This document shows positions 14,245-42,186 of a stretch of 64,000 nucleotides of DNA, in pieces (the first letter of the stretch is position 1; each line of letters starts with the position of its first letter). Both the position numbers and the translations under genes were made by a program. The notes below the pieces were generated by a model. It was given only the letters and a program-made list of their open reading frames with translations, had not been told where the DNA came from and did no database searches. The stretch is taken from positions 1,076-65,075 of the forward strand of contig PMXQ01000112.1 in the NCBI GenBank assembly GCA_003171065.1, read 5' to 3'. The DNA comes from Chloroflexota bacterium (GTDB lineage Bacteria > Chloroflexota > Limnocylindria > Limnocylindrales > CSP1-4).

Positions 14245-14300
14245 GTGGCCCAAGAGTCTAGCGGGGGCGCCGATACGCCGCGACGCGGCGCTGAGCCGGG

Positions 14301-15993: not shown

Positions 15994-17226
15994 ATGCCTG
16001 AACCGACCCCGCCCAAGCTCGAAGCCGCGCCGGCGGCGCGCCCGCTGCGGACGGCCGTGCTCCTTGCAGTGGGCACCGAGCTCACCGTGGGCGAGACGCG
16101 CGACACCAACAGCGGAGATCTCGCGCGGTCGCTGGCAGAGCACGGCGTAGAAGTCGAGTGGATCGTGGCGCTGCCCGATCGCCTGGCGACTGTCGTAGAC
16201 GCGCTACGGAGCGCGCTGGCCGCGGCCGATTTCGCCGTCACGACCGGCGGTCTCGGACCCACGCCCGACGACTTGACCCGAGAGGCGATCGCCGCCGTCG
16301 TCGGGGAGCGGCCGGCGGTGGATCCCGAGCTGGAGCGCTGGCTGCGCCATCTGTTCGAGCGGCGCGGCCTCGCCTACCACGACACCAACGCGAAACAGGC
16401 CTGGCTCATTCCCTCGGCGACGGCGATCCCCAACGAGCGCGGCACCGCGCCGGGGTGGTGGGTCGATCGGCCGGACGGACGTGTGATCGTTGCGCTGCCG
16501 GGGCCTCCGGGCGAGATGCGGCCGATGTGGGAGGGCTGGGTGCTCCCCCACCTCACCGCCCGAGGCCTGGGACAGGAACGCGTTACGCGGACGTACCGCC
16601 TGACGGGCATCGGCGAGTCGGCGGTGGCCGCGCTGCTTGGAGAGCGGCTGCTCCGGGCCGAGAACCCGGTCGTGGCCACGTACGCGCGTTCGGACGCGGT
16701 GGACGTGCGCATCTCCGCCCGCGCCGATGCAGGCCGCTCGCCGGAGCAGCTCGTCGAAGAGGCCGAGGCCGCCGTCCTCGCCGCCGTCGGCAAACACGTT
16801 TGGGGCCGCGACGGCGACACGTGGCCCGGCGTCCTGGGCCGCGAGCTGTCCGCCCGCGGCTGGACGGCAACGCTCGTCGAGGCTGGCACGGGCGGCGCCA
16901 CTATGCGACTCCTCGGCGATGCCCCGTGGCTCGTCTCGTCGCGCCTCCTCGCGCCCGCGGAGACAGACGCCCCGATCGCCGCGCTGGCCGACCAGGCCCG
17001 GAAGACCGCCGATGCGACCGTGGGCCTGGCGGTGCGGGCGATCGAGTCGGGCGAGGGCACCCAGGTCGAGGTCGCAATCAGCGGCCCCTGGGGCGCCCGT
17101 GAAACGCGCCAGACGGCATTTCTGGGCGGCATCGAGGGCCGGCGGCGGGCCGGGATCGCGGCCGTCGCGTTCCTCCATGCGGCGGTTCGGGACGCGCCGC
17201 CCGCAGGCGAGGGTCGGGCTCGTTAG
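15994..17226 (+). CDS. cinA: CinA-family competence/damage-inducible protein (MoCF-binding + CinA C-terminal domain)
   Basis: AVLLAVGTELTVGETRDTNSGDLARSLAEHG...AVTTGGLGPTPDDLT. ATG 15994 is chosen because the upstream extension overlaps the divergent gene. Confidence 0.85.
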   Translation: MPEPTPPKLEAAPAARPLRTAVLLAVGTELTVGETRDTNSGDLARSLAEHGVEVEWIVALPDRLATVVDALRSALAAADFAVTTGGLGPTPDDLTREAIAAVVGERPAVDPELERWLRHLFERRGLAYHDTNAKQAWLIPSATAIPNERGTAPGWWVDRPDGRVIVALPGPPGEMRPMWEGWVLPHLTARGLGQERVTRTYRLTGIGESAVAALLGERLLRAENPVVATYARSDAVDVRISARADAGRSPEQLVEEAEAAVLAAVGKHVWGRDGDTWPGVLGRELSARGWTATLVEAGTGGATMRLLGDAPWLVSSRLLAPAETDAPIAALADQARKTADATVGLAVRAIESGEGTQVEVAISGPWGARETRQTAFLGGIEGRRRAGIAAVAFLHAAVRDAPPAGEGRAR

Positions 17227-17270
17227 GCCTGCGCAGGAAGGCTGCTTCTGGCGGACAATACGCACCAGGG

Positions 17271-17783
17271 TTGTCGCCAGACCCGAAGCTGGAGCGAAGT
17301 ATGAGCGCCAAGGAGAAGATCGAGGCGGCCGAGCTGGCTGGAATGCCGCTGTTCGAGGGCCTGACAGAAGCCGACCTCGCGCCCCTTGCCGCGGCATCCT
17401 GCCGGCGCCGCCTGAACGATGGCGAAACCCTGGTCGAGATGGGCGACCCGATCTCCGAGATCCACTGGTTGGAGGACGGCCAGCTGGCCCTGCGCGTCCG
17501 CTACGACGGGCGCTGGGTCCTGGTCTCGACGCTGCACGCAGGCGATCTGCTCGGTTGGTCAGCGCTGCGCGAGGACCCGACGGCCCTGTCAACCGCCCGA
17601 GCGATCGGCCCGGCCGTAATGCTCTCGATGCCGGCCTCCGGCCTGCTCGGCCTGCTGGTCGGCAGCTCGTCCCAGTCTCAGCTGCTGCTGCGCCGGCTTT
17701 TTGGGATCGCGACCCAGCACCTGGACGAGAGCCGCGCGCAGCTGCTCCAGCTGGGGCGCGAGGGGGTCATTTCCGCGGGCTGA
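17271..17783 (+). CDS. Cyclic-nucleotide-binding domain protein
   Basis: LFEGLTEADLAPLAAASCRRRLNDGETLVEMGD...GDLLGWSAL matches the cNMP-binding fold pattern. Confidence 0.8.
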   Translation: MSPDPKLERSMSAKEKIEAAELAGMPLFEGLTEADLAPLAAASCRRRLNDGETLVEMGDPISEIHWLEDGQLALRVRYDGRWVLVSTLHAGDLLGWSALREDPTALSTARAIGPAVMLSMPASGLLGLLVGSSSQSQLLLRRLFGIATQHLDESRAQLLQLGREGVISAG

Positions 17784-17850
17784 CGGCGCCGCGGGCTGAC
17801 GGCGCCGCGGGCTGACGGCGCCGCGGGCTGACGGGGCCGCGGACGGCGCG
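17773..17850. repeat. 16-bp tandem repeat CCGCGGGCTGACGGCG, about 4.5 copies
   Basis: Units at 17773, 17789, 17805 and 17821, plus a partial copy. The first unit contains the stop codon of the cNMP-binding gene, and each full unit carries TGA. Confidence 0.85.
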
Positions 17851-17867
17851 CTGGTCTTCGGCGCCCC

Positions 17868-18563
17868 CTAGCGGCGCGAGGCGCGGAGCAGGGCGTCGAG
17901 GTCCGGGATCACGATCATCTCGCGGTCCATGCGCAGCAATCCGTCGGCCACGAACTCGCCCAGCAGCTTGTTCACGCTCTGGCGCGTGGCCCCGATCATC
18001 GCCGCCAGGTCGCTCTGCGTCAGCGGAGCGTCCAGTCGTATCGAGCCGTCGGCGTCGCGCAAGCCGTGCTCCTCCGCCAGCCGTGCCAGCCGCGCCGCCA
18101 ATCGGCCGGTCAGGTCGAGGAAGTGGAGCTCGGCCACGTGGGCGGTCAGACGGCGCAGCTCGGCGGCGATCGAGCTAAGCAGCGCGTCGCGAATCGCCGG
18201 CTCCGACGCCACCAGGGCGCTGAAGCGGACGCGTGGGAGGGCGAGAGTCTCGGTCGCCTCGAGCGCTATCGCGCTGGCGGAGCGGGGCGCCCCGTCCAGG
18301 AGCGCCAGCTCGCCCAGGAAGTCGCCGCGCCGGATCGTCGCCAGGATCGCCTCATCGCCTTCATCCGAGGGCACGACTACCTTGACCGCGCCGGACGCCA
18401 CGATGAACAGCGAGTCGCCGGGGTCGCCCTCGTGGAACAACACCTCGCCCTTCCTGAAGCGCCGCCTCCGCAGGCTCTGGGCGATCGCCAGGCGCGACTC
18501 CGTTCCCAACCCGCTGAACAACGGGCAACGGCCCAGCGCCTCGACGGCGAAATCGTTCGTCAT
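17868..18563 (-). CDS. Crp/Fnr-family transcriptional regulator
   Basis: cNMP-binding domain (LFSGL...GDSLFIVASGAVKV...GDFLGELALL) plus C-terminal HTH (LTQSDLAAMIGATRQSVNKLLGEF). The likely start is M32 at 18563. Confidence 0.85.
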   Translation of the reverse strand: MTNDFAVEALGRCPLFSGLGTESRLAIAQSLRRRRFRKGEVLFHEGDPGDSLFIVASGAVKVVVPSDEGDEAILATIRRGDFLGELALLDGAPRSASAIALEATETLALPRVRFSALVASEPAIRDALLSSIAAELRRLTAHVAELHFLDLTGRLAARLARLAEEHGLRDADGSIRLDAPLTQSDLAAMIGATRQSVNKLLGEFVADGLLRMDREMIVIPDLDALLRASRR

Positions 18564-18650
18564 AGCCAAATGGTAGCGTCGGGAAAGCGCCGGGGCGGCA
18601 TGTTTCGAGGCACGACCACGCCGGAGGCGAGCGCCGCTTACGATTGACCG

Positions 18651-19856
18651 ATGCAACGCCTCTCCGCGGAACGGGTGATCGGCGTCGGGCTCGCCTTGAG
18701 CGCAATCGCGCTCGTGGCGGTGCTGGCGCTCGGTTTCGGCTCGGACCTGCTGACCGGCGTCCCCACCTCCACCCCATCGGCGGGACCGGTCACGCAGGCC
18801 TCAGCGACCGCCGCGCAGGCCGCCTCTCCGGCTCCCACCGCAACGCCGAGCGATTCGCCGACAGCCTTGACGACCCCGGCTCCCACTCCCACGCCAACCG
18901 CCGCGTCCTCTGCCTCGCTCCAACTACCGGCGATGCTGGCAACTATCGGAGATTCCTACACCCAGGCGTGGAGCGTTTCGCCGGCCTACAAGAAGGATCA
19001 CCCGGGTTACTCATGGGCAGTGGGCAACGTCAAGGGCGATCACGTCTTCAGCCTGCGAGAGCGGTTCGAGGCCCTCGGCGACAACGTTGCGGTCGTTGAC
19101 GCGGCGACGTCGGGCAAGAAGATGAGCGACGCCGCGCGCCAGGCCACGGAGATCGTGGCGGCGGCCGGGTCGCTGGCGCCGGGCGCGACCGTCTTCGTCA
19201 CCTTCGAGCTCGGCACGAACGATCTGTGCGACACCCCGACGACCGATCCGGCGACGTTCGAGACGCAGCTTCGCGCCGCGGTCGACATCCTCCGCTCCGG
19301 ACTGCCGAGCGGGAGCGAGATCCTGATGCTCTCAGTTCCCGACTTCTCACATTTCTACGCCATAACACAGGCGAACGCGGAGGCCAAGGCGACCCTGAGC
19401 GAGGCGGCCCACGCGCAGACCTGCGCGCCGTTCCTCGGTTGGGACAGCCCGCTCACAATCGGCGCGGCCCGCCAGTTGCTGGCCACCTACGACGCGACCC
19501 TTGGCCAGGTCTGCGGCGAGATCGAGGCGACCGACGGCCAGGCCGGCAAGCTCCACTGCCTCAGCAACGAAGCACTCCTGTCCGAGAAGGACTTCACGAT
19601 CAAGGACCTCAGCACGGTCGACTACTTCCATCCATCGCTCTCGGGACAGGCCAAGATGGCGGCGTCGGCCTGGGCGGCCGGCTATTGGGCCAACGTCCAG
19701 CTGCCTCCGGGGGCGGCCGCGCTCGCGCTCGGTGATGCGGGTGGGCCCGGCGGCGGATACTTCGGCGGAGTCGCCCCGGCGGGAATCGCCCCGATCGTGC
19801 CGTTCCTGCTGGGAGGTCGGCGGCGCCGACGGCTAGCTCGCCGCCCTACGCGCTGA
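18651..19856 (+). CDS. Secreted SGNH/GDSL-family hydrolase with a C-terminal Gly-rich/TM/Arg-tail anchor
   Basis: Block I IGDSYT, block III ELGTNDLC, block V DYFHPS. The N-terminal TM is followed by a Pro/Thr/Ala linker. The C-terminus is GIAPIVPFLLGGRRRRRLARR. Confidence 0.75.
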   Translation: MQRLSAERVIGVGLALSAIALVAVLALGFGSDLLTGVPTSTPSAGPVTQASATAAQAASPAPTATPSDSPTALTTPAPTPTPTAASSASLQLPAMLATIGDSYTQAWSVSPAYKKDHPGYSWAVGNVKGDHVFSLRERFEALGDNVAVVDAATSGKKMSDAARQATEIVAAAGSLAPGATVFVTFELGTNDLCDTPTTDPATFETQLRAAVDILRSGLPSGSEILMLSVPDFSHFYAITQANAEAKATLSEAAHAQTCAPFLGWDSPLTIGAARQLLATYDATLGQVCGEIEATDGQAGKLHCLSNEALLSEKDFTIKDLSTVDYFHPSLSGQAKMAASAWAAGYWANVQLPPGAAALALGDAGGPGGGYFGGVAPAGIAPIVPFLLGGRRRRRLARRPTR

Positions 19857-19867
19857 CGGCCGCTGAG

Positions 19868-21952
19868 TCACGAGACCGGGCTTGCCACCGTCCTGCCGTC
19901 TCGCAACGCCGCGGCGGCCTGCCTGAACGCCTCCGCCTCGACAAGGGCGCCCATCGCCTCGGCCTCTGTCGCCGCCCGCTCCAGTAGCGGCAGCGCACGC
20001 GCCACGTCGCCGGCCGCAATCCGATGCCGCGCCAGCTCGGCGGCATCCGCGGCCGGTTCAACCGCCTCGAGCCGGTCAGCCAGGACAGTGTGCAGATGCT
20101 GCCTCCGGTCCGAAAGCAGGCGGCCATACGCGGCGTCGTGGAACAGCTGGTGCCGGAAACGCCAGGATCCCGTGGTCTTGAACTTTCCATCGGGTTGCCC
20201 CGACTCGCTCTCGCAACGCACGAGTATCCCGGCGTCTGCGAGCTGGCACAAGTCGTCGCCCATGTCCGACCTGCCCTCGAGCTCGCACAACAGCCACTCC
20301 GGGAACGTGACGCCAATGACCGCCCCGACCTCCAGAGCCGACCGCTGGCCCGGCGGCAGAGCGTCGATCCGGGCCCCCAGCAGCGCCCGCAAGCTCAGCG
20401 GCACGCTGCGCCGGGCGCCCTCGCGGTCGATCCGCAGCGCTTCGCCGATGTGCTCCATACGCCCGCTGGCCCGAAGCATGCGAATGACCTCACCGATGAA
20501 CAGGGCGTTGCCGGCGGTGCGCTGGAAGAGCCAGTGAGCCGAATCCGGCTCCAGCTCGGCGCCGCCCACCGCCGTTCCCAGCTCTTCCGTTGCCGCCTCG
20601 TCCAGGCCGTTGAGCTCGATGACCTCGACGTGGGGCAGGTTCGTCCATTCGGGCGTGAGCGGCGGCCGAACACCCGTGAAGACGACGATCGGCAGCTCCT
20701 CGGCCAGGTGGATCATCTCCGCCAGCATCAGCCGGCTGGACGGGTCCATCCAGTGGTAGTCGTCCAGCACGAAGCAGCGCGGCTGCGTCGCCACGAGCCC
20801 CGAGAGGAACCACTTCGACACGAGCTTGAGGCCGGTGGCCAGCTCGACTGGATCCGAGAGCCCGGTGAACCGCTGGTCCCAGCCCTCTTCCGGCAGCAGC
20901 AGCATCTCCGAATCGCGGGCTATCACCGCCGCCGCGCCGAACAGAAGGCGCGCCGTCTCCTCGTCCATCTGCGAGCCGACGGCCTGGCGGGCGAGTATCC
21001 CGGCCTTGACCCCGAACTCGTCGGCCAGGGCATCGATCATGGCCCGGACGGTGTGGTACGGGGCGCCCATGCGGTGAGGTGGATTGTCGATCCAGACCCA
21101 ACCGAATCCGGCCGCCCTCGCCTCGGACTCCATCTCCGAAAGGAGCCGCGACTTGCCGATCCCGGCCTCGCCGGACACCACGACCGCACCTCCCCGGCCG
21201 GTCCGGGCGGTTCGGCGGATCACCTCGGCCAGCCGGCGCCGTTCCGCGTCCCGACCGACAAGCCGAACGGCCCGGCCGAAGTTCCCCGCGCGGCGTCGCT
21301 CGTCACGCAGGCGATGGATCAGGATCGGCCGGCTCTGGCCGCGCAAAAGGCGCTTGCCGACGCGCTCCACGCCGATCCTGGGTTCCGCGGCCTGGACTGT
21401 GGCCTCGTCGAGCAGCACCTCCGCGGGCTCGGCGAGCTGCTGCAGGCGGGCCGCGGTCGTCATACAGTCGCCGGTCAGAGCCACCGAACGGATCCCCGCC
21501 AGATCGCGCACCGCCGCCACGACCTCGCCCGTGGCGATGCCTACTCGGAGCCGCAGCGGCCTGTCGCTCCCCTCGCCGAGCCGTGCCAGCGCCGCCTGCA
21601 TCTCCAGGGCGCACAGGCAGGCCCGCAGAGCGTCGTCGTCATGAGCCGTTGGGGCGCCGAAGACGGCCAGCACTGCATCTCCGACGAACTTCTCGAGCGA
21701 GCCGTCGAAGCGGACGACGGCATCGCCCAGGACCGTCAGGGCGCCATCGACGCGGGATCGGACCTCCTCGGGATCGAGCTCGTCGACGAGCTGCGTATAC
21801 CCCACCAGGTCCGCGAAAAGGGCAGTCACCACGCGTCGATCGCCGGCCTTCAAGCCGGTCGAGGCGGATTCCAGCTTCCTGCCGCACTGATGGCAGAAGC
21901 GTGCTGCGGGCGCCTTTGGCGCCGCGCAATCGGGACAGAGCATGGGGCACAA
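19868..21952 (-). CDS. Class III adenylate/guanylate cyclase fused to an AAA ATPase and a helical (TPR-like) C-terminal region
   Basis: N-terminal zinc ribbon CPDCAAP..CHQCG, cyclase core VVTALFADLVGYTQL...KFVGDAVLAVFGAP, and P-loop GEAGIGKSRL. Confidence 0.85.
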   Translation of the reverse strand: MCPMLCPDCAAPKAPAARFCHQCGRKLESASTGLKAGDRRVVTALFADLVGYTQLVDELDPEEVRSRVDGALTVLGDAVVRFDGSLEKFVGDAVLAVFGAPTAHDDDALRACLCALEMQAALARLGEGSDRPLRLRVGIATGEVVAAVRDLAGIRSVALTGDCMTTAARLQQLAEPAEVLLDEATVQAAEPRIGVERVGKRLLRGQSRPILIHRLRDERRRAGNFGRAVRLVGRDAERRRLAEVIRRTARTGRGGAVVVSGEAGIGKSRLLSEMESEARAAGFGWVWIDNPPHRMGAPYHTVRAMIDALADEFGVKAGILARQAVGSQMDEETARLLFGAAAVIARDSEMLLLPEEGWDQRFTGLSDPVELATGLKLVSKWFLSGLVATQPRCFVLDDYHWMDPSSRLMLAEMIHLAEELPIVVFTGVRPPLTPEWTNLPHVEVIELNGLDEAATEELGTAVGGAELEPDSAHWLFQRTAGNALFIGEVIRMLRASGRMEHIGEALRIDREGARRSVPLSLRALLGARIDALPPGQRSALEVGAVIGVTFPEWLLCELEGRSDMGDDLCQLADAGILVRCESESGQPDGKFKTTGSWRFRHQLFHDAAYGRLLSDRRQHLHTVLADRLEAVEPAADAAELARHRIAAGDVARALPLLERAATEAEAMGALVEAEAFRQAAAALRDGRTVASPVS

Positions 21953-22124
21953 ACCACAAACTGGACGGGTTCCCGGATGGTACCCCGCCGGACCCTTGAC
22001 TGAAAGGTCAGATCGCGGTTGACCGAACGGTCACACGCACCGCTCCAGACTCGGCGACGCGCCCGATTCCAGCCGCATCAGTCCCCGTCCGCGTCGGCTA
22101 TTGCGTCCGCGGTTGCGTCCGCGA

Positions 22125-32770: not shown

Positions 32771-32880
32771 CATGCCCCCTGTCAAGCGCGAACGCCTCGG
32801 GGGCGAGCCGCGAGCCCCATCCCGCATCTACCAGCTCGCGGTTCCTCCACGGCCGCGAGCTCCACCCCGAGGGAGGAGCC

Positions 32881-33762
32881 ATGAGCATCGCGGTTCTGGA
32901 AGCAACTCAATCGCCGGCCTCGAGCCGGCCCATCGCCAACGAGTTCCCGGCCGGCCCGGCCGCCCTGCTGGTCGACCACGCCACCAAGTGGTTCAAGGTC
33001 GATCGACGCAAGCCACCGGTCATGGCCGTGGACGACGTCTCGATCCGCATCGAGCGGGGCGAGATCTACGGCCTGCTCGGGGCGAACGGAAGTGGCAAGT
33101 CCACGTTCATTCGCCTGGTGAGCGGCCTGCTGACCCTCGACGCAGGTCGGGTCGAGGTCTTCGGCCACGACCTGGTCCGCGAGGAGATGGCGGTCAAGCG
33201 GCTGATCAATCGGGTCAGCGTCGACGCCGCCTTCTTCAAGAAGCTCTCGCCGGCCGAGAACCTCTCGTTCGCGGCCCGTCTCTACGGCCTGGACGCAGGC
33301 GAAGCCCGCCGAAAGGCGGCGCTGATCATGGCCCGCCTGGGCATCGGCGAGAAGCGGATGGGCCGGCCGGTCGAGCAGATGAGCCGGGGCATGCAACAGA
33401 AGGTCGCCATCGCCAGGGCAATCCTGACGAGCCCGACGCTGCTGCTGCTGGACGAGCCCACGACCGGGCTCGACCCGCGATCGAAGCTCGACGTCCAGTC
33501 GTTCGTCGAGGAACTTCGGGCCGATCACGAAGCGACGATCGTTTTGACCACGCACGACCTCGCGGAGGCCGATCGGCTGTGCGGGCGAATCGGAATCCTG
33601 GCCGGCGGGCGACTGACGGCCGAGGAGACGCCCGAACGCCTCAAGACACGCGTCGCCTTCGAATACGGACTTCCGCCCACGCTCGAAAGCGCCTTCATGC
33701 AATACACCGGCCGCTCCCTCGACGACGACGTCGAGGAGGGCGAAGCCGAGCCGGCTGAATAG
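32881..33762 (+). CDS. ABC transporter ATP-binding protein (ABC-2 / DrrA-like exporter type)
   Basis: Walker A GANGSGKST, signature MSRGMQQK, Walker B LLLLDEPTTGLD. The ATG is preceded by GGGAGGAG. Confidence 0.9.
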   Translation: MSIAVLEATQSPASSRPIANEFPAGPAALLVDHATKWFKVDRRKPPVMAVDDVSIRIERGEIYGLLGANGSGKSTFIRLVSGLLTLDAGRVEVFGHDLVREEMAVKRLINRVSVDAAFFKKLSPAENLSFAARLYGLDAGEARRKAALIMARLGIGEKRMGRPVEQMSRGMQQKVAIARAILTSPTLLLLDEPTTGLDPRSKLDVQSFVEELRADHEATIVLTTHDLAEADRLCGRIGILAGGRLTAEETPERLKTRVAFEYGLPPTLESAFMQYTGRSLDDDVEEGEAEPAE

Positions 33763-33917: not shown

Positions 33918-34112
33918 TTGCATTCGCACCATCTCGCTCTGGAGATACACGGGGAACGCCAGCGGGAGATCGAAAGCCGCCTTCGCATCCGGTCAGTAGA
34001 CCGGAGCCAGATCCGGCGCCGCTCTTGCCGCCACCGCCTCGGCTACGGGCTGATCCAGGTTGGGTCGATGCTCGCAGCCGATGGCCCACTCCAGCTGGCC
34101 GCCCGACGCTGA
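33918..34112 (+). CDS. Small hypothetical protein (Arg-rich helix + hydrophobic LG..L..VG..L segment)
   Basis: 64-aa ORF with a TTG start in the 385-bp gap between the ATPase and permease genes. Its pattern resembles the 74-aa ORF at 52670..52894. Confidence 0.35.
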   Translation: MHSHHLALEIHGERQREIESRLRIRSVDRSQIRRRSCRHRLGYGLIQVGSMLAADGPLQLAARR

Positions 34113-34147: not shown

Positions 34148-34942
34148 TTGACCGCAATCAGGCGCGAGACGCTGGCCAGCTATGCCTTCGTTGAGCGCAA
34201 CTTCAACCTGACCAAGCGCTACTTCGGCTGGGAAGTGGCCTTCCTCGTCTACGCCGTGGCTGGCGCGCTTTCGGTCTCGCTGATCGGCGAGTCGGTCGGC
34301 AACCGCCGCCTGCTCATGTCGCTCGTGGTCGGCGCCGTCTTCTGGAACTACCTGTCCGTCGTCTTCAGCTCGATCGGCGACACGATCTCGTGGGAGCGAT
34401 GGGAGGGCACGCTCGAGTACACGATGATGGCCCCGGTCCGGCGCTCCGTGCAGCTTCTCGGGTCCGCGCTGTACGCGGTGATCTACGGCCTGATCCACAC
34501 GACGATCCTGCTGATCGTGCTGGCGCTCTTCTTCTCGCTCGACCTCGGCCACGCCAACCTGGGCGCGGCCGCGATCTTCATGGTGGTCGGCTCGGCCAGC
34601 TTCATCGGCATCGGGATGCTCGCCGCCATCATGCCCATGATGTCCGTTGAGCGCGGCTCGCAGATGGTCTTCGTCCTCCAGTCGTGCCTGCTCCTGATCA
34701 GCGGGGTATACGCACCACTTCCGTCCTCGATTGGTCCACTCCGTTACATCAGCGAGCTCTCGCCGGCGACCTACGTCCTGCGCGGGGCGCGGTCGGCGCT
34801 GATCGACGGAGCCGGGCCGGATTGGCGCGAGGTGGCCATCCTGGTCGTGATGGCCTGCTTCTTTATCCCGGTCGGGCTGTGGGGCTTCGGTCAGGCCGAG
34901 AGGTACGCCAAGAAGACGGGCAAGTTGAAGCGAGTCGGCTAG
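34148..34942 (+). CDS. ABC-2 type transporter permease
   Basis: The TTG start is preceded by AAGGAG. There are six hydrophobic segments. The C-terminus reads ..LLISGVYAPLPSSIGPLRYISELSPATYVLRGARSALIDG..GLWGFGQAERYAKKTGKLKRVG. Confidence 0.85.
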   Translation: MTAIRRETLASYAFVERNFNLTKRYFGWEVAFLVYAVAGALSVSLIGESVGNRRLLMSLVVGAVFWNYLSVVFSSIGDTISWERWEGTLEYTMMAPVRRSVQLLGSALYAVIYGLIHTTILLIVLALFFSLDLGHANLGAAAIFMVVGSASFIGIGMLAAIMPMMSVERGSQMVFVLQSCLLLISGVYAPLPSSIGPLRYISELSPATYVLRGARSALIDGAGPDWREVAILVVMACFFIPVGLWGFGQAERYAKKTGKLKRVG

Positions 34943-35038: not shown

Positions 35039-35434
35039 CTACCTAGACGCAGTGCACAAGTAGTTGATGTCCGTGCTGACGAGTTGGACCTCGTCAATCC
35101 CCATCGACGGGCCAAGCGAGGCGTCGTTCAGGCCCGCGACGATCGCGGCACATGCCTTCTTAACAAGTTCGCTCTTGGCATCCACAGAGTCAACCAGAAT
35201 GACTTCTATGTCCGGTCCGTCCCCAAGATGCCCCGCTGGATATACGGTCACGTCTGGCAGACCCTTAACCCGATTGAGGATTCCGTACCAGTCGGTGTCT
35301 TTCGCGATGGTCTGTATACGTACAGCCGCGGCACGGGAGAGCGTGGGGTCCGGGATGGGTTCCTTGGTCCCGAGGCAGGCGCCCACGGCTACCGCAAGAA
35401 GAATCGCCAACGAGATCCCCAACCCTCTCCGCAT
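35039..35434 (-). CDS. Lipoprotein, hypothetical (cargo of cassette 1)
   Basis: MRRGLGISLAILLAVAVGACLG lipobox. 131 aa. Confidence 0.6.
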   Translation of the reverse strand: MRRGLGISLAILLAVAVGACLGTKEPIPDPTLSRAAAVRIQTIAKDTDWYGILNRVKGLPDVTVYPAGHLGDGPDIEVILVDSVDAKSELVKKACAAIVAGLNDASLGPSMGIDEVQLVSTDINYLCTASR

Positions 35435-35547
35435 TTGCTGAATCTAGCACTTCGCCTTGGGGTTGAAGACGGAGTAGGCAATACCGGCCCAACTGTCCCC
35501 GTGCGGTCTTGCATAGTCTGGTGCGAGAACGTGCGGTCTGCAGTAGT

Positions 35548-35798
35548 CCACCGGCGTGTACTACTCGACCGACATCCTGCCCGGCTGGATGCAGCTGCTG
35601 TCCCGCATATCGCCGGCCACTTATGTCCTCGATGCAGTCCGCCGATCGCTGATCGACGGCGCCTCGGTGGACCAGCTGCTGCCCGATCTATGGCCGCTGC
35701 TGGCGATGGCCTTTGTCTTCATTCCGCTCGGGTTGTGGGGCTTCGGCAAGGCCGAGCGCTACGCCAAGCGAACCGGGAAGCTGAAGAGGGTGGGCTGA
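35548..35798 (+). pseudogene. Orphan 3' fragment of an ABC-2 permease gene (copy B, divergent)
   Basis: It translates to TGVYYSTDILPGWMQLLSRISPATYVLDAVRRSLIDG..IPLGLWGFGKAERYAKRTGKLKRVG*. An in-frame TAG lies two codons upstream, and the N-terminal TM segments are absent. Confidence 0.8.
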
Positions 35799-35801
35799 GC
35801 G

Positions 35802-36932
35802 ATGGCTACCCTTGACGTCGCCGCCGGCTCACCGGCGGCGCTCCCCTGCTCTGTCGAACCCCCCGACGCATTGCGCGCCTGGGGGTGGGATGCGGAGCGG
35901 GCAGTGGAGTTCGAGCCGCTTGCCGAGGCCGGCCTCTGGCCCGCCCGAGTTGCCGCGCAACATCGCGGTCTCTGGCTCGTTGTTGGAGCCAGGGGCGAGG
36001 CGTTCGCATCTCCAACCGGGCGGCTACGTCATCGTGCAGACGAAGGCGACCTGCCTTCGGTTGGCGATTGGGTCGGCTGTGTCTCTTCGCCTCATGACGG
36101 CGAGGCGCGGATTGACCTCGTTCTTGCGCGGCGCTCGATGTTCCGCCGGAAGGCGGCCGGGTCTCGCCTTGCCGCTCAGGTCGTCGCTGCCAACGTAGAC
36201 ACCATCTTCGTGGCCACATCACTCAACGGCGACCTGAACGAAAGACGGCTCGAACGGTACGTGGCGATGGGTCGCGAATCCGGCGCCGAGCCGGTCGTGC
36301 TCCTGACCAAGGCTGATCTTGCCGACGCAGACGCACGCGATTCGGCTGTTCGCCTTGAAACGGAGCTGCGTGTCCATGTCATCGCCCTCAGCTCTCGCAC
36401 GGGCGAAGGTCTCGACTCAGTGTCCCGCTGGTTCGCGGCGGGAAAGACGCTGGCCCTCGTCGGGTCGTCGGGCGTCGGCAAGTCGACGCTGCTCAACAGG
36501 CTCGCCGGTCAGGAGCTGATGGTCACGCGCGAGATCCGCGAGGACGACGGCCGTGGCCGCCACACCACGACTCATCGAGAGTTGTTCTTGCTGGCCAGCG
36601 GAGCGCTGGTTCTCGACACGCCGGGAATGCGAGAGTTCGGACTCTGGGATGCCGAGGACGGCGTCGACGACACGTTCGCGGAGATCGTCGAGATCGCGGT
36701 TGGTTGTCGTTTCGCCGACTGCTCTCACAAGTTCGAGCCTGGCTGCGCTGTCCAGGCGGCCGCGGCACGTGGAAGGCTCGACCAAGCCCGTCTCAAAGCC
36801 TATCGTCGCCTGGCCCGCGAACTGGCCGACCAGCCGAAACCAGCGACACGTCGCGAGAAGGACCGGCAGTTCGGCAGAGCGGTTCGCAATGCCTCCGCCG
36901 AGCGTATGGCTCGCAAGCGCTACCCCGGCTGA
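35802..36932 (+). CDS. rsgA: Ribosome small-subunit-dependent GTPase A
   Basis: VVANVDTIFVATSLN, LLTKADL, GSSGVGKSTLLNRL, GRHTTTHRELF, DTPGMREFGLW, and the zinc knuckle CRFADCSHKFEPGCAV. Confidence 0.9.
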   Translation: MATLDVAAGSPAALPCSVEPPDALRAWGWDAERAVEFEPLAEAGLWPARVAAQHRGLWLVVGARGEAFASPTGRLRHRADEGDLPSVGDWVGCVSSPHDGEARIDLVLARRSMFRRKAAGSRLAAQVVAANVDTIFVATSLNGDLNERRLERYVAMGRESGAEPVVLLTKADLADADARDSAVRLETELRVHVIALSSRTGEGLDSVSRWFAAGKTLALVGSSGVGKSTLLNRLAGQELMVTREIREDDGRGRHTTTHRELFLLASGALVLDTPGMREFGLWDAEDGVDDTFAEIVEIAVGCRFADCSHKFEPGCAVQAAAARGRLDQARLKAYRRLARELADQPKPATRREKDRQFGRAVRNASAERMARKRYPG

Positions 36933-36934
36933 TC

Positions 36935-37046
36935 ATCCCTGTCGGGCTGTGAGCTCAGAAGCCGGCGTCAGCTGTGATAACGCAGCAGCGTGAACTGGGC
37001 CGAGCACCACGCCAGGCGAACCGGGAAGCTAAAGAGGGTGGGCTGA
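36935..37046 (+). pseudogene. Degenerate relic of the last ~80 bp of the permease gene (copy E)
   Basis: ATCCCTGTCGGGCTGTG matches 34866..34882 of the intact gene. After a ~45-nt unrelated insert, the last 48 nt (36999..37046) differ from the B tail 35751..35798 at about 5 positions. Confidence 0.65.
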
Positions 37047-37087
37047 GTCTCAGAAAGTCGGCGCGTGGCCCTGACACAATTGCGCCC

Positions 37088-37783
37088 ATGACCTACGAGT
37101 CAGAGGCGATTGCTCGCGCGTTCTACGCCGCGCTGACCCCGGCCGGTCTGGCCGGCAGGACACAGACCGAGTGGGACGAACTCATCCTGCGCGACCTGGC
37201 CGAGCTGCTCCCGCCCGCGAACCGCATCCTCGACGTGGGCTGCGGCTACGGGCGCCTGGCCGTGCCCCTGGCGGTCGCGGGATACCAGGTCCAAGGCCTC
37301 GACCTGTCCGCCGTGATGATCGAGGCGGCGCAGGAGAACGCGGCCGAGGCCGGCGTGCGCATTCCGTTCGTGGTCGGGTCGATGACGGATCTGCCCTACG
37401 ACGACGCGTCGTTCGACGTCGTGCTCTGCCTGTGGTCGGCCTTCCACGAACTCCTCGAAGTACACGCCCAGACCGCGGCCATCCACGAGATGTGGCGCGT
37501 GCTGGTGGGCGACGGGATCGGCGTCATCGAAGGACCGCCCTACACCTCACCAACGGCGAAGGAGATCGCGCGCGGCTACCGGCGCGGACACGAGCATCGC
37601 GTGCGCTGGGACCTTATCGATGGTTTACCCAACCCCCACTACGTCCACGACGAGCGCAGCCTCGCGGAACGCTGTCGTGCGGCCGGTGTGACATCGTTCG
37701 ACGTGCTGCCGCGGGATTGGGGCGGTCGTCCTCGCCTCCTTCTTCGCCTGCGTAAGCTGCATCAAACGAGCCTCACCCGATGA
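37088..37783 (+). CDS. Class I SAM-dependent methyltransferase
   Basis: Motif I ILDVGCGYGRLAVPLA, plus QGLDLSAVMIEAA and FDVVLCLWSAF. The start ATG 37088 is chosen because the longer track ORF reads through relic E. Confidence 0.85.
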   Translation: MTYESEAIARAFYAALTPAGLAGRTQTEWDELILRDLAELLPPANRILDVGCGYGRLAVPLAVAGYQVQGLDLSAVMIEAAQENAAEAGVRIPFVVGSMTDLPYDDASFDVVLCLWSAFHELLEVHAQTAAIHEMWRVLVGDGIGVIEGPPYTSPTAKEIARGYRRGHEHRVRWDLIDGLPNPHYVHDERSLAERCRAAGVTSFDVLPRDWGGRPRLLLRLRKLHQTSLTR

Positions 37784-38584
37784 CCAGCTACCGACCATCC
37801 GACGCCGTCCTCCAGGAATTGACTGCGGGACTGCGGTCGGCACTCGGGGCCGACCTCGTTGCCCTGTATCTGTATGGCTCGTCGGTCTCCGGCGGCTTCG
37901 ACATCGGCGTCAGTGACATCGACCTGCTGGCCGTCACCTCGGATGATGTCGCTGAGACTGACATCGCCGGCATCGAGGCATTTCATCGGCTCATCGTCGA
38001 GCGACATCCAGAGTGGGGTGACCGGCTCGAAGTCGTCTATGTCGGTCGCGATACCCTTGCCGGCTTCCGAGCAGGCGGTCCCCTCGCCGTCATCAGCCCG
38101 GGCGAACCGTTCCACATCCGCAACGGGGTGGAGCTGTGGCTACAGAACTTCTACCTCGTCCGCGAGACCAGCGCCACCCTCTTCGGCCCCGGCCCCGCCG
38201 ACCTGATCCCTGCCATCTCCTGGGGCGAGTTCATGGCCGAGACCGCCCGCTACGCACAGGAGGTGCGACATCGAAGTCTCCGAGACGCGACGCCGGCCGC
38301 GCGGGCGTATTGCGTCCTCACGATGTGCCGGGCCGCTCTGCACGATCCAATCCGAGCGTCCTTGCTCGAAACAGGAGGGGGCGGCATACATCCGGTCGCG
38401 GCGGCCCGAATGGGCATGGCTGATTGCTGCCGCTGAACTCTGCCGTCTCTCCCGAGGGCAGGTGGGCTTCGCGAACGACGAGACGCGAGTAGCAGCAGAG
38501 AACCTCATCCGGCTTCTCGGCGACGAGATTTCCGTTGCACCGATCCTTCCGGACCATCGAAAACGACAGACGGGGGCCGCATGA
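37780..38584 (+). pseudogene. ANT/AadA-like nucleotidyltransferase (NTase + DUF4111-like domain) interrupted by a frameshift near 38330..38345
   Basis: NTase motif LYLYGSSVSGGFDIGVSDIDLL. After ..LTMCRA the homologous continuation LCTIQSERPCSKQEGAAYIRSRRPEWAWLIAAAELCR is in another frame. That frame ends with a TGA overlapping the ATG of the next gene (ATGA at 38581). Confidence 0.6.
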
Positions 38585-39096
38585 GACGATCGAAGGAGAT
38601 ACCAACTGCCACCACGAGCTATCGCGCCGTCGAGCTCGAGCGCCGCTTCGCCGCGGCGAACGGCGACGTGATCGCGTTCGTCCAGGGCCTGACCGACGAC
38701 GACTGGTGCGCTCCTTGTGAGCGCGAGGGCCGGAGCGTCGGCCAGGTCGTCGAGCACATCGCCGCTGGACACCTGATCATCGGCGGGATCGTCGAGGCCA
38801 TGGCTCTCGGGTCGCCCCTGCCAGTCGCCGCCAGACGGACACAGGCGACCGGCGCGCGTTACAACGCCCGCCAGGCTGCCCGTTTCGCTGATCGCTCCCG
38901 GAAAGACGGCCTTCGGTCGTTGCGGAGGAACGGCGGGATCGTCGCGCGATTCCTGGCCAGCCTCACGGACGAACAGCTCGACCGGGCGATTGACACTGCC
39001 GAAGGGCCGATCACGACGCGAGACGAAATCGAGCATGGGCTGATTGGCCACGCTCTTGGCCACATAGAGGCGGTTCGGGAAACGGTGGCGAGGTAG
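38581..39096 (+). CDS. DinB-family (DinB_2 / mycothiol-dependent-enzyme-like) protein
   Basis: FVQGLTDDDWCAP...VGQVVEHIAAGH...HALGHIEAV shows the His-triad-like pattern of the DinB fold. Confidence 0.7.
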   Translation: MRRSKEIPTATTSYRAVELERRFAAANGDVIAFVQGLTDDDWCAPCEREGRSVGQVVEHIAAGHLIIGGIVEAMALGSPLPVAARRTQATGARYNARQAARFADRSRKDGLRSLRRNGGIVARFLASLTDEQLDRAIDTAEGPITTRDEIEHGLIGHALGHIEAVRETVAR

Positions 39097-39275
39097 GCGG
39101 CCGTGCGCCGCGGCGTGCCTTCTCCCCAATCCGAAGACGACGCGGTTCAGTGTATTGACAATCGGCCCATACGCCGCCAAGGATCGCCGACATGCAATCC
39201 AACCCTTTCTACTCCAGCGACCTCAACACCGCCTGCCTATGGCCGCGAACAGGTCTGGGTGTGCCGACGGCCTGA

Positions 39276-40031
39276 GTGATGTCATGGCATGGCGCGTCGT
39301 CAGGCGACGCGCATCAGGCGGCAAGGGCGGTTGGCCGTGCGCTGCTGGGCGCGCTCGGCGACGATCTCGTGGGCGTCTATCTCCACGGCTCTGCCGCGCT
39401 CGGCGGCTTCCGCTGGGAACGGAGCGACCTCGACATCCTGGCGCTGAGCCAAAGGGAGCTCTCGGACCGGCAGATCGGTCAGGTCACCCATGCGCTCGCC
39501 GCCTTGTCCTACCCGGCGAACGGCCTGGAGTTCAGCCTCATGACGGCGAGCGAGGCATCCGCACCCGAGTTCCCTGCGCCACGGTTCCAGCTCCACATGA
39601 CCACCTATGGGACAGCTCACATTGGCAAAGTGGTCGATGGTCGAGCGCGGGCAGGAGATGCCGACCTCGTCCTCCATCTGGCTGTCTGCGAAGTGCGCGG
39701 CATTGCGATCGTCGGGCCACCACCGCGCGAGATCCTCCCTCCGATCCCGGATAGCGCCGTCGCAGCAGCGATGCACGAGGAGATTGATTGGGCGCGCAGG
39801 AACGCTTCCCCGGAATACCTGGTTCTGACCAGCGCCCGGGCCTGGCTGTTCGCCGAGACGCGCCGAATCGCGTCCAAGATCGAGGCCGGCGAATGGGCGG
39901 CCGAACGCTACGGCGAACCGGACGTGATCGAGGCCGCTCTCGCTCGTCAGCGCGGGGCTCAAGCCGAGATAGCCGTGGGTGCAGCGGAGCGGCTGGCCGA
40001 ACACGTGCAGCGCCTCACCGCGCGCGGATAG
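39276..40031 (+). CDS. ANT/AadA-like nucleotidyltransferase-domain protein (second copy, intact)
   Basis: VYLHGSAALGGFRWERSDLDILAL (GS..D.D), with a C-terminal helical DUF4111-like region. Confidence 0.7.
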   Translation: MMSWHGASSGDAHQAARAVGRALLGALGDDLVGVYLHGSAALGGFRWERSDLDILALSQRELSDRQIGQVTHALAALSYPANGLEFSLMTASEASAPEFPAPRFQLHMTTYGTAHIGKVVDGRARAGDADLVLHLAVCEVRGIAIVGPPPREILPPIPDSAVAAAMHEEIDWARRNASPEYLVLTSARAWLFAETRRIASKIEAGEWAAERYGEPDVIEAALARQRGAQAEIAVGAAERLAEHVQRLTARG

Positions 40032-40138
40032 GCTCGCCCTAACGTCTTGCTCACCTGGAGGCAGTTCAGGAGGCCGTGGCAAGGAAGACGCCCAACGCCG
40101 CTGCGCCCCCCTGCTCCGGCACTTCTGCCCGCCAGCGG

Positions 40139-40383
40139 CCACCGGGGTATACGCACCGCTTCCGCCCTCGATTGGCCCGCTCCGCTACATCGACGTACTC
40201 TCGCCCGCGACCTATGTGCTCCGGGGTGTGCGGTCGGCGCTGATCGACGGCGCCGGGCCGGGTTGGGGCGAGGTGGCGATCCTGGTGTCAATGGCCTGCT
40301 TCTTCACCCCGCTCGGGCTGTGGGGCTTCGGCAAGGAAGGGCGTTATGCCAAGCGCACAGGCAAGCTCAAAAGGGTCGGGTGA
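40139..40383 (+). pseudogene. Orphan 3' fragment of the ABC-2 permease gene (copy C)
   Basis: 40144..40383 aligns colinearly with 34703..34942 at roughly 85% nt identity by eye. It translates to TGVYAPLPPSIGPLRYIDVLSPATYVLRGVRSALIDG..GLWGFGKEGRYAKRTGKLKRVG*. Confidence 0.85.
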
Positions 40384-40439
40384 TCGCCTACTGAGGGCTG
40401 ACTGGACCGCACGGTCGTCGGGGTGATCGACCAGGACGG

Positions 40440-41111
40440 CTACGGAGTGCCTCGATACGACGCGCGGGTCCCCGAGCCATCGAAGAGCCAAGCCGTGCCC
40501 TCGACAAGATCGATCTGCGCGTCGTCAACGTGCAGGTGCGCGTCGTCTTCAAGCGCGAGAACAGGCATCCTGTGGAAGGCGTGATACGCGGCAATCCGCT
40601 CGTCTCGCTCGGGCCTGGCGTCGCGAGAGAGGAAATGGACGTTCAGGCTGAATGGCACAAGCCCGAGTCCCGCAAAGTCTCGACAGCCGCACACATTGCC
40701 GTCATTGCTGTTGAGGATGTCCATGCCGCACAGGACCGCCCCGGCGCTGAAACCGATGAGCGGGAGGCCGTGGCGGACACGCTGCGCGATCTCAGCCATC
40801 AGACCGGCTTGTTGGAGCCGGTCAGTGAGCACGAAGGTGTTGCCACCAGGGACGTAGAGAAGAGTGATCTGATCGAGCATCCGCAGGATCGAAGCGCGAT
40901 CCATCGACACGGGATCAAGAAGCTCGACTGCCGCGACCTCTGAGAACCACGACCGAGTCTCTTCGAGGAAGAAGGCGGCATCCAGCGCCGCCGCCGGCAG
41001 ATACCCGACGGAAGGTCGGTCTGAATCCGCCAGATACCCACGACTCGAATCAAGCACACGGGACAGACCATCACCCGGCGTCGCCATCAGGTCGAGTCGA
41101 AGTCCGGTCAT
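40440..41111 (-). CDS. Peptidase S51 family (dipeptidase E / cyanophycinase-like) protein
   Basis: LLYVPGGNTFVLTDRLQQAGL...LIGFSAGAVLCG (nucleophile Ser elbow) ..NVHF. Confidence 0.75.
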   Translation of the reverse strand: MTGLRLDLMATPGDGLSRVLDSSRGYLADSDRPSVGYLPAAALDAAFFLEETRSWFSEVAAVELLDPVSMDRASILRMLDQITLLYVPGGNTFVLTDRLQQAGLMAEIAQRVRHGLPLIGFSAGAVLCGMDILNSNDGNVCGCRDFAGLGLVPFSLNVHFLSRDARPERDERIAAYHAFHRMPVLALEDDAHLHVDDAQIDLVEGTAWLFDGSGTRASYRGTP

Positions 41112-41262
41112 CGTGTCCCTTTTGTCACGGATAGCCGCCTAGACTCTCTGCGGGCCCATCCGCCACGCCAAGCTTACGGCCAGTGGGCGCTGGGCCATGC
41201 GCTCTTCGCGGCATCTGGTTCTATGCCTTTCATGCCGGCGGGCCACCCCTGGACATCGTCTG

Positions 41263-41537
41263 CCACCGGGGTCTACGCGCCACTTCCGTCGTCGATTGGT
41301 CGCAGCGGGCTGCCGCTTCGTCGGCTGCTTACATGAGCTCGAGCCCGGCTGTGCGGTGCGGACGGCGGTCGCCGACGGCCGGCTCGACCCGGACGGCTCA
41401 AGAGTTATGGCCATCTCGCCCACGAGGTGGCAGAACAACCTTCGACCGCCCAACGGCGCGAGAGGGACCGGCGGTTCCAAAAGGCCGTCCGCAACGCCTC
41501 GGCCGAAAGCATGGCCCGCAAGACGTACCGCTGGTAG
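41263..41537 (+). pseudogene. Chimeric relic: permease fragment (TGVYAPLPSSIG) fused to a frameshifted rsgA 3' end (copy D)
   Basis: 41268..41301 matches 34703..34736. 41302..41537 encodes AAGCRFVGCLHELEPGCAVRTAVADGRLDPD, then a 1-nt deletion, then LKSYGHLAHEVAEQPSTAQRRERDRRFQKAVRNASAESMARKTYRW*. This is homologous to the RsgA C-terminus at 36700..36932. Confidence 0.75.
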
Positions 41538-41595: not shown

Positions 41596-42186
41596 ATGCT
41601 CACGCGGATGCGCGATATGCAAGCACCGTGCCGCGCCGGCCTGGTGGCGTTGTCGCTGGTCCTGATATGCGCGGCCTGCTCCGGCGGTGCGGCGACGCCC
41701 GCCCCTGCATCTCGATCCGTGGAGGAGACCGATATGGCCGGCTTCGAACTCAAGAGCCCGAGCTTCGTCGAAGCGGGACCGATCCCGATCAAGCACAGCT
41801 GCGACGGCCAGGACGTCTCGCCGGCGCTGGTGTGGGAGGGCGCTCCCGCGTCGACGGCCGCGCTGGCCCTCATCGTCGACGATCCCGACGCTCGTGGATT
41901 CATCCATTGGGTCGCATACAACATCGCCGGCGGCCCGACCGGCGGGCTGCCTGAGGGAGCCGGCTCGGCGAGCGCGCCTCCACAGGGGCGCAACGACTTC
42001 GGCCGCGTCGGGTGGGGCGGTCCTTGCCCGCCCGGCGGCACGCACCACTACAGGTTCACGTTGTATGCGCTGTCAAGGCCACTCACGCTGAGCGGCACTC
42101 CATCGGCGAGCGAGGTGCGCGGCGCTCTGGCCCGCGTCCTGCTAGGCCACACAACGCTGACGGCGACCTACACCCGCCGGAAGTAG
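41596..42186 (+). CDS. YbhB/YbcL (PEBP, Raf-kinase-inhibitor-like) family lipoprotein
   Basis: Lipobox LSLVLICAACSG, plus LIVDDPDA..FIHWVAYNI, GWGGPCPPGGTHHYRFTLYAL. Confidence 0.85.
   Translation: MLTRMRDMQAPCRAGLVALSLVLICAACSGGAATPAPASRSVEETDMAGFELKSPSFVEAGPIPIKHSCDGQDVSPALVWEGAPASTAALALIVDDPDARGFIHWVAYNIAGGPTGGLPEGAGSASAPPQGRNDFGRVGWGGPCPPGGTHHYRFTLYALSRPLTLSGTPSASEVRGALARVLLGHTTLTATYTRRK

Follow-up and report, generated by a model that had tools for sequence, protein, structure and literature searches.

In the stretch of DNA analyzed here (the window, 64 kb in all, from a Limnocylindria-like genome of the Chloroflexota), an intact ABC-2 permease gene is followed by further, detached copies of its own 3' end. 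Codon 185/186 of the permease gene is probably the site (attB) at which a family of integrative elements enters the chromosome by means of a large serine recombinase (LSR), and insertions there would explain the array in the window. The preliminary description, made from the raw sequence, had attributed three of these orphan tails to a site-specific crossover. This inference was essentially right: the exchange falls within 3 nt, recurs over distinct flanks, and is accompanied by LSR genes beside the junction in relatives. The gene, its tails and the junctions lie at the following positions.

34148-34942, forward strand: ABC-2 permease gene, an intact hybrid (Pfam ABC2_membrane, E = 7e-15), with a native 5' part up to about 34701 and a type-2 tail (tail A, the last 80 codons, 34702-34942, 'GVYAPLPSSIGPLRY..')
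34699-34711, forward strand: gene-proximal junction of attL type, C AGC GGG GTA TAC, with the putative crossover C-G-G at 34702-34704
35548-35561, forward strand: junction B, CC ACC GGC GTG TAC, with C-G-G at 35552-35554
35550-35798, forward strand: orphan tail B, type 1 ('TGVYYSTDILPGWMQ..KLKRVG', then stop), with a frame open to the stop and 55% identity to permease residues 185-264 in tblastn
40139-40152, forward strand: junction C, CC ACC GGG GTA TAC, with C-G-G at 40143-40145
40141-40383, forward strand: orphan tail C, type 2, open to the stop and 79% identical to the intact tail in tblastn
41263-41276, forward strand: junction D, CC ACC GGG GTC TAC, with C-G-G at 41267-41269
41265-41300, forward strand: orphan tail D, the first ~38 nt of a type-2 tail (repeat family D5, 89%)

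Three exact copies of the motif CCACCGGNGTNTAC are present in the window, all on the forward strand, and they start at 35548, 40139 and 41263. Dinucleotide shuffles give a chance expectation of 0.29, and none of 100 shuffles reached three occurrences. As had been noticed from the sequence, homology to the intact permease starts at the same codon, 185, in B, C and D. It does so at the identical nucleotide, and the upstream flanks resemble neither the permease nor each other, forming at least 14 classes across contigs. When the window copies were aligned, permease homology never extended upstream of the junction. Additionally, the copies are diverged xenologues rather than recent duplicates (A and C are 78% identical over 265 nt). 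Two tail types can be distinguished. Tail B belongs to type 1 (YYSTDILPGW), which is ancestral, and A, C and D belong to type 2 (YAPLPSSIGP); intact permeases of type 1 encode SGVYY(S/P)xxxLPGWMQ. With the type-2 tail A, the permease reading frame is complete up to the shared ..KLKRVG stop, and the junction falls inside the Pfam ABC2_membrane match. The count of three orphan tails needs qualification: B and C are full-length, D is a stub of ~38 nt, and a fourth, partial remnant (E) is also present.

The position of the crossover can be narrowed by two polymorphisms. The intact permease reads ATC AGC GGG GTA TAC, with AGC at 34700-34702, and this AGC aligns with the ACC of the orphan tails. The chromosomal left side always has AG and the element left arm AC; therefore, the exchange lies 3' of that base. 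At codon 186, GGG is present in 24 of 24 type-2 tails, and the chromosomal GGC is kept in 6 of 10 displaced type-1 tails, which places the exchange 5' of the third base of this codon. From these alignments, the predicted crossover is within C-G-G, comprising position 3 of codon 185 and positions 1-2 of codon 186. The longer core suggested earlier, GG(G/C)GT(A/C/G)TAC, is superseded by this result, and its GTNTAC part is conserved because both tail types encode Val-Tyr. Similarly, CCACC had been regarded as element-derived, and this holds only for ..(C)C plus the C/G difference, as the alignment runs from the A of codon 185. An exchange window of at most 3 nt suits the 2-bp staggered cut of serine recombinases and not the 6-8-bp overlap of tyrosine recombinases. 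The central dinucleotide would be GG (non-palindromic) or CG (palindromic). Outside the crossover, the element site (attP) and attB are dissimilar, the left arms being unrelated to the gene. Furthermore, the designation of all three junctions as attR-type does not extend to C and D, whose type-2 orphans are formally attP-like, with an element left arm joined to an element right arm.

Related loci show both the empty and the occupied site. Genome hits numbered 266 in all; a scan with one genome per species gave 80 related loci, all in metagenome-assembled genomes (MAGs) of Limnocylindria/Limnocylindrales, and a metagenome scan with the type-2 tail gave ~25 further contigs; these loci carry L numbers below. 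In ~75 relatives, the ATPase, ABC-2 permease, rsgA and PEBP genes stand in a row without an insert. The order permease, rsgA, PEBP is found in ~75 of the 80 loci, with rsgA directly next to the permease or past one ~1-kb gene. The empty site predicted for relatives that lack cassettes was found there as ..CTG ATC AGC GGS GTS TAC TAC.., followed by rsgA; in general, codons 184-189 of the empty-site permeases read (A/G)TC AGC GG(C/G) GTN TAC TAC, preceded by CTG. Of 81 rows, 77 have AGC at codon 185, and none has ACC. In contrast, the window and ~20 other contigs carry an insert exactly at codon 185. The inserted unit begins with a replacement 80-codon tail, and unrelated sequence ending in ..(C)C AC follows. 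Among the genome-scan loci, extra tails occur only in the window, L001, L034 and L059. The type-2 tail is confined to loci with inserts, the ~75 relatives having the type-1 tail, and it is therefore insert-derived and not native.

Junctions were counted over all loci pooled, each distinct 25-nt left flank being taken once. This gave 24 orphan tails from independent assemblies, with ACC at codon 185 in 20, AGC in 3 and TCC in 1. Thus, ACC GGN GTN is the reading of most orphan tails (20/24) and of none of 100 intact genes, a pattern that random truncation cannot produce, in agreement with the first assessment. Several left-flank classes recur across arrays together with the same cargo. For junction C, the 'class c' arm (..cacttctgcccgccagcggcc), also present in L059, L087, L096 and L102, accompanies the nucleotidyltransferase/DinB genes. 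For junction D, the 'class d' arm, also present in L090, accompanies peptidase S51; the cassette at 40137-41300 matches L090 1408-2572 at 84%, and the homology begins at the junction. Tandem units are common to several arrays, with three junctions plus attL in the window, three orphans in L001, and two to three each in L087, L090 and L096. Displaced type-1 tails lie at the far island end in L001, L059, L090, L095, L096 and L153.

Given these recurrences, it is hardly credible that the tails are coincidentally truncated paralogues, or that metagenome assembly joined strain variants. The four island-bearing genome loci are from short-read MAGs, and the long-read MAGs among the 80 loci are all empty sites, as an assembly artefact might produce. 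However, the same architecture and junction appear in independent samples and assemblers (GenBank MAGs, JGI, ENA and Logan) with kilobases of unique cargo; for truncated paralogues, the lack of permease homology upstream of the window junctions and the three motif matches against 0.29 expected are equally unfavorable. In tblastn extensions, some orphans appeared homologous from residues 176-182, and the one at L034 12400 from residue 121; these extensions were dismissed as spurious or as left arms. The L034 flank recurs in L092 joined to ACC.

In relatives, the junction is accompanied by a recombinase gene. Three diverged LSR members (100/59/44% identity; L095, L153-158 and L163) start 30-90 nt from an orphan-tail junction, and the proteins of L095, L153 and L163 each have a Pfam Resolvase domain. 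A recombinase gene beside the junction had been anticipated, of either the tyrosine or the serine type; it is serine and not tyrosine, and it is found in related loci and not in the window. The LSR genes are as follows.

L095 14193-16340: LSR gene
L153 10001-12133: LSR gene
L163 553-2496: LSR gene

L095 has a 6-kb island at the same site, and its last gene is the LSR gene, which points away from the junction. The LSR of L095/L160 (715 aa) matches Pfam Resolvase (E = 1.4e-10) and Zn_ribbon_recom (1.5e-5), has a C-terminal helix-turn-helix (HTH) of the excisionase type, and starts ~30 nt from the displaced orphan type-1 tail. P0002 (59% identical, on several contigs) adjoins a 69-aa orphan type-1 tail open reading frame (ORF), then rsgA, GNAT and PEBP; its junction reads ..ggctgtctc followed by ACC GGC GTC TAC TAC. 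P0004 (44% identical, from a more distant genome) adjoins an 84-aa ABC2_membrane fragment, and the junction reads ..gttgata followed by ACC GGG GTT TAC TAC. Contig Ga0187878_1000576 (L091 + L155) has an island of ~24 kb, at one end of which is an intact permease ending in a type-2 tail, and at the other the LSR followed by the displaced type-1 tail. Within this island, a degenerate junction (L091 11901) lies upstream of the part that carries the LSR.

The LSR family is small, with 5 clusters among 5.8 billion proteins. Its profile gave marginal matches to PhiC31 among PDB sequences (E ~0.01-0.02), and the relationship was brought out by a fold search. With an AlphaFold model, Foldseek recovered full-length Bxb1 (E = 2e-9) and PhiC31 (E = 4e-9) over 586-668 columns at probability 1.0, with a low TM-score of 0.15-0.25 and a predicted local distance difference test (pLDDT) score of 69.6 for the model. 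The catalytic domain matches TP901-1 and others. Against NCBIfam CcrB, the LSR reached only E = 0.08. The last domain, an HTH of the excisionase/MerR type (TIGR01764), matches the fold of mycobacteriophage Pukovnik Xis and may be a built-in directionality domain. No relatives of the LSR were found in IMG/VR or in 50,697 phage records. Separately, a pattern scan of IMG/VR for phages or plasmids that might carry the type-2 tail gave only 3 matches, all due to chance and without permease homology. Collectively, three diverged enzymes beside the same junction make the LSR family the obvious catalyst, and these neighborhoods indicate that it quite likely carries out the exchange.

The same data bear on two other sources of the junctions. 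One is an integron-like or tyrosine system, in which folded attC-like sites would be used by an IntI- or Xer-type enzyme encoded elsewhere, such as the two Xer-like genes of the window. The cassettes are indeed small, lack an integrase and carry accessory cargo (nucleotidyltransferases and a methyltransferase). However, this explanation is very improbable. The Xer-like genes lie 20 kb away, and one abuts tRNA-Leu, the usual layout of a separate tRNA-targeting island; the junction is ACC/GGN and not G/TT, lacks the GTTRRRY core, and has no IntI gene nearby. Moreover, single-stranded DNA folding of the 102-nt left flanks of 8 junctions gave z values from -1.4 to +1.6 and no common hairpin, the exchange window of at most 3 nt is too short for a 6-8-bp overlap, and the recombinases adjoining the junction are only of the serine type, in three lineages.

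The other dispenses with a dedicated recombinase: tails would be copied and shuffled by homologous recombination, by illegitimate recombination (for instance of the homology-facilitated kind) or by unequal crossing-over, with CCGGGG as a microhomology hotspot. The 240-bp tail repeats, at 78-90% identity, could support homologous exchange, and mosaic tails exist, as the last 100 nt of B match cassettes with a type-2 start. As the origin of the boundaries, this process has very little chance of being correct: homologous recombination cannot set a boundary whose left flanks are unrelated, the same nucleotide and the same C-for-G change are found at no fewer than 20 independent junctions, and LSR genes stand beside the junction in three lineages.

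Based on these observations, we propose that codon 185/186 of the permease serves as attB for integrative elements moved by the divergent LSR (predicted attB of a type-1 gene, ..CTGCTGATCAGCGGCGTCTACTACCCG..). The right half of attP would be a copy of the last 80 permease codons, and the left half would be element DNA ending in ..(C)C AC. A 2-bp staggered exchange in C-G-G would join the chromosomal 5' part of the gene to the element tail, leaving the gene intact, and the earlier tail would move downstream to a position behind the element left arm. Orphans read ..CC ACC GGN GTN TAC and intact genes ..TC AGC GGN because the displaced tails follow this arm. Repeated insertion at the gene-proximal junction would stack units with the newest nearest the gene, and deletions and homologous exchange between the ~240-bp tails would then scramble them. 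The remaining features of the window locus are listed below.

32878-33762: ABC ATPase gene
33918-34112: small ORF of ~64 aa (MHSHHLALEIHGERQREIE..), placed after the ATPase gene and before the permease gene and also conserved in L001, L034 and L059
34943-35551: cargo and left arm of cassette I, without a Pfam match, where the GC content falls to 0.60 in a window of 68% GC
35039-35434, reverse strand: lipoprotein-like ORF of 131 aa in cassette I
35480-35549: 'e-type' left arm of cassette I, with repeated GTGCGGTCTG motifs and the end ..GTCC AC
35802-36932, forward strand: rsgA, encoding the ribosome small-subunit GTPase (Pfam RsgA_GTPase, E = 6e-49), the sole intact copy in the window, starting 3 nt past the end of tail B
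36935-37046, forward strand: tail remnant E (repeat families D3, 92% to B, and D7), beginning 2 nt past the rsgA stop and consisting of a 17-nt tail piece and the final ~50 nt of a tail, separated by 46 nt without relation to either; its own junction is deleted
37088-37783, forward strand: S-adenosylmethionine (SAM) methyltransferase gene (Pfam)
37780-38436, forward strand: nucleotidyltransferase gene (Pfam), probably frameshifted
38581-39096, forward strand: DinB-family protein gene (Pfam)
39276-40031, forward strand: AadA-like nucleotidyltransferase gene (Pfam)
40440-41111, reverse strand: peptidase S51 gene (dipeptidase E-like; Pfam, E = 1.4e-30), cargo of cassette III
41300-41537, forward strand: native rsgA remnant, the last ~80 codons, frameshifted and fused by deletion to tail D
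41626-42186: PEBP gene, in the conserved backbone, which resumes at 41300

In terms of the proposed mechanism, cassette I would consist of tail A and the lipoprotein-like ORF. Cassette II would be composite, with tail B, a xenologous rsgA, remnant E, and the methyltransferase, nucleotidyltransferase, DinB and second nucleotidyltransferase genes. Cassette III would comprise tail C and peptidase S51, followed by the tail D stub fused to the native rsgA remnant. These units lack a recombinase and would most likely have been inserted in trans, by the LSR of a co-resident or since-lost LSR-bearing element.

The rsgA sequences record part of this history. In L001, the closest relative, the native type-1 tail and rsgA are retained at the distal end of the array. 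The intact rsgA of the window is 73% identical to the native L001 rsgA and 85-88% identical to the rsgA behind type-2 tails in L084, L092 and L100. In contrast, the remnant at 41300-41537 is 88% identical to the native L001 gene; its region matches L001 16701-17607 at 88%, and tblastn aligns it with rsgA residues 298-374 in two frames. These identities indicate that deletions removed the native tail and most of the native rsgA from the window, which now depends on the xenologue brought by a cassette. From the sequences, island cargo has apparently taken over the function of this housekeeping gene. Tail B is also a mosaic, with a type-1 start and a last ~100 nt that, together with rsgA, match the L084, L092 and L100 cassettes at 85-88%; homologous exchange between tails thus also reshapes the array.

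The cargo module at 37088-40031 has an 84% match in L059/L089 and partial matches in L087/L096. Its nucleotidyltransferase ORF at 37780-38436 encodes 218 aa, compared with 280-288 aa in L087, L096 and L059, and it is probably frameshifted because tblastn past residue 185 moves to another frame. Two Xer-like tyrosine recombinase genes, at 10202-11158 (forward strand) and 13118-14068 (reverse strand), score under all NCBIfam cut-offs. One of them is directly beside a tRNA-Leu gene (14157-14244, reverse strand), and the pair probably belongs to another integrative element, one that targets tRNA genes; a search of window positions 5000-14300 for a direct repeat derived from the tRNA found none.

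Variant arrangements were seen at other loci. At L074 6617-6865, an intact permease has a third tail type (SGVYAPDSIKSGLLSYIAPFSPATHVL..), and the contig stops 228 nt downstream. At L059 2205-2225 (the same as in L089), the permease gene breaks off at the crossover, where it passes straight into the methyltransferase module (AGCGGGGT to GACACAATG) without a replacement tail; this direct joining may be a secondary deletion or a pseudo-site event. As the permease is truncated there, some events do not preserve the gene. L095 has lost the ATPase gene and, likewise completely, the 5' portion of the permease gene. The cargo of the 24-kb island (L153/L155, ~11200-22100) includes hypothetical genes, HATPase_c_3, Z1, DUF4420, AIPR and Dcm (a cytosine DNA methylase), and L091 has an ImmA/IrrE-HTH pair; this gene set looks like phage defence.

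The left arms were also compared. The 'e-type' arms (window 35480-35549; L096 4400-4457; L097 2490-2548; L059 6450-6508) are mutually homologous and mostly precede type-1, that is, first-displaced, tails. They hold two copies of a GTGCGGTCTGGTGC-like motif ~23 nt apart, and these pairs are possible candidates for protein-binding repeats. Across the arms, no conserved left half-site emerged, only CC at -1/-2 (plus AC) being shared, and a GGTGC...GCACC dyad roughly symmetric about the crossover was limited to few arms and inconsistent.

Whether the recombinase-less cassettes move as such can be considered from their distribution. The arrays without an LSR occupy the same site as the LSR-bearing islands. 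L001 12402-13900, which contains a tail, a 130-aa secreted protein gene, an insertion sequence (IS) remnant and a left arm, is 97% identical to L087 6371-7898 and L096 2021-3548 (96-100% per 100 nt). The shared block begins at the first tail base, and its boundaries are on both junctions. Around it, the upstream sequences are 47% identical, the next tails 86-88% and the host backbone 84-92%. L100 (3700 nt) contains a type-2 tail, a truncated rsgA and a gene for a secreted repeat protein of 916 aa, and its left arm is followed by AGC GGG GTA. An exact 70-nt overlap of its suffix with its prefix fits a 3.6-kb circle, and L097 shares the first 132 nt at 99%. This overlap could be an excised circle or, equally possible, a repeat-induced assembly break. 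For cassette III, the predicted junction of a single-cassette circle is 41264 joined to 40143 (..gtctgccAC to CGGGGTATACGCACCG..). On balance, these sequences favor mobilization of the LSR-less units in trans over a purely fossil state.

The contrary view accepts the LSR attB as genuine and regards the window units as eroded complete LSR elements, so that LSR-less units were never mobile as such. The recombinase would have been lost by deletion, possibly LSR-mediated, between the attR junction and cargo pseudo-sites ending in CCAC. Signs of decay are present: only 38 nt of tail D are left, fused to what remains of an rsgA gene, E is likewise incomplete, one cargo gene is seemingly frameshifted, and L001 and L034 contain an IS remnant and pieces of rsgA. 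There is little conservation among the left arms, and since the LSR gene lies beside attR, a single deletion would remove both the LSR and the authentic arm. Nevertheless, we consider this account unlikely. A cassette without an LSR that is 97-100% identical across hosts with an 84-92% backbone, with junction-exact ends and differing neighbors, is hard to obtain by independent erosion, and at least 10 arrays lack any LSR remnant.

Several points weigh against LSR-moved elements and their mobilization in trans. With the family hidden Markov model on six-frame ORFs at E ≤ 10, neither the 64 kb of the window nor the other arrays without an LSR (at least 10) yielded an LSR gene or remnant. The LSR-less left arms share little past CC + AC, which is poor for an LSR half-site of ~25 bp. 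Canonical LSRs recombine attP with attB only and do not target attL; by analogy, stacking at an attL-type junction would need a relaxed specificity such as that described for Ccr enzymes. Four orphan junctions depart from ACC, and two are degenerate (L091 11901 and L094 2547). For the LSR itself, the Zn_ribbon_recom match is barely above the cut-off (25.7 bits against 25.3), and Pfam Recombinase (PF07508) was not detected. Finally, all loci are based on metagenome assemblies.

A further reading, possible but doubtful, is that the LSR with its fused excisionase-like domain captures and shuffles recombinase-less cassettes, forming an integron-like platform with a coding attachment site that would be active in uncultured peatland Chloroflexota. 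If true, this would be a gene-capture platform in which every insertion also swaps the C-terminus of the ABC-2 permease, the site being a functional 80-codon tail.

The LSR-moved element family would account for orphan gene fragments as footprints of site-specific integration. It places the putative borders of a hotspot for genomic islands to the nucleotide, in the Limnocylindria, an uncultured lineage abundant in soil and peat, and shows a route by which a housekeeping rsgA may be replaced by a cassette-borne xenologue. In addition, a very rare, uncharacterised LSR clade is paired with its natural candidate attB, attL and attR, the information needed to test its use in genome engineering. Literature searches found no description of Limnocylindria mobile elements or of this locus.

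Functionally, the closest known system is the staphylococcal cassette chromosome (SCC), in which nested cassettes flanked by att sites lie downstream of rlmH and are mobilised by CcrAB (PMC11470126). As in SCC/SCCmec at rlmH/orfX with the Ccr enzymes, the putative serine-recombinase attB lies in the 3' part of a conserved gene that is intact after insertion; the cassettes are in tandem, bounded by att-derived repeats, many lack a recombinase, and the cargo includes defence and accessory genes. Misiura et al. (2013) are reportedly relevant to this comparison with SCC and Ccr. In contrast to SCC, where the site is a few codons from the stop, the permease site is 80 codons from it, and therefore every unit must carry a functional gene tail of ~240 bp. 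Moreover, the Limnocylindria LSR is very distant from Ccr and has a C-terminal HTH of the excisionase type, and the host is an uncultured member of the Chloroflexota. The picture of SCC and accretion is thereby extended to a second phylum and to an insertion point far within a coding gene; the principle itself is not new.

At the 3' end of fda in Streptococcus thermophilus, integrative and conjugative elements (ICEs) accrete with recombinase-less cis-mobilizable elements (CIMEs). The tandem accretion at one site in the 3' end of a housekeeping gene is similar. CIMEs keep their att sites, have lost the recombination module and are mobilised by an incoming autonomous element, as may hold for the LSR-less units. 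However, ICEs and CIMEs recombine by a tyrosine integrase over a core that is long and identical, rather than by a serine recombinase with an exchange of at most 3 nt. Phage 21 and e14 integrate into E. coli icd with a phage-borne replacement 3' end. Similarly to the units here, the element carries a diverged target 3' end, the gene is functional, and the displaced end stays as a pseudo-tail at the far junction; the differences are the tyrosine integrase, a single element instead of an array, and ~165 nt replaced.

PhiC31 and Bxb1 resemble the present system in the domain architecture suggested by the fold match, in an integrase gene beside the att site, in a crossover of a few base pairs, and in attP and attB that otherwise differ. 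In contrast, the Limnocylindria islands are without phage genes, the LSR has an extra C-terminal Xis-like domain, and the canonical enzymes do not target attL, as stacking here would require. Integrons and clusters of attC sites lacking integron-integrases (CALINs) likewise form arrays of small cassettes without an integrase at one site beside a fixed gene, but no IntI, attC structure or GTTRRRY core was found here, and the cassettes are bounded by the coding tail of a gene. Coding-gene integration and tandem arrays are common in genomic islands that have been mapped, 43% of which are in coding sequences (PMC12424338). Collectively, what is distinctive in the permease locus is the depth of the site, with a 240-bp coding tail as half of the proposed attP, the divergent and rare LSR with a fused Xis-like domain, and the host lineage.

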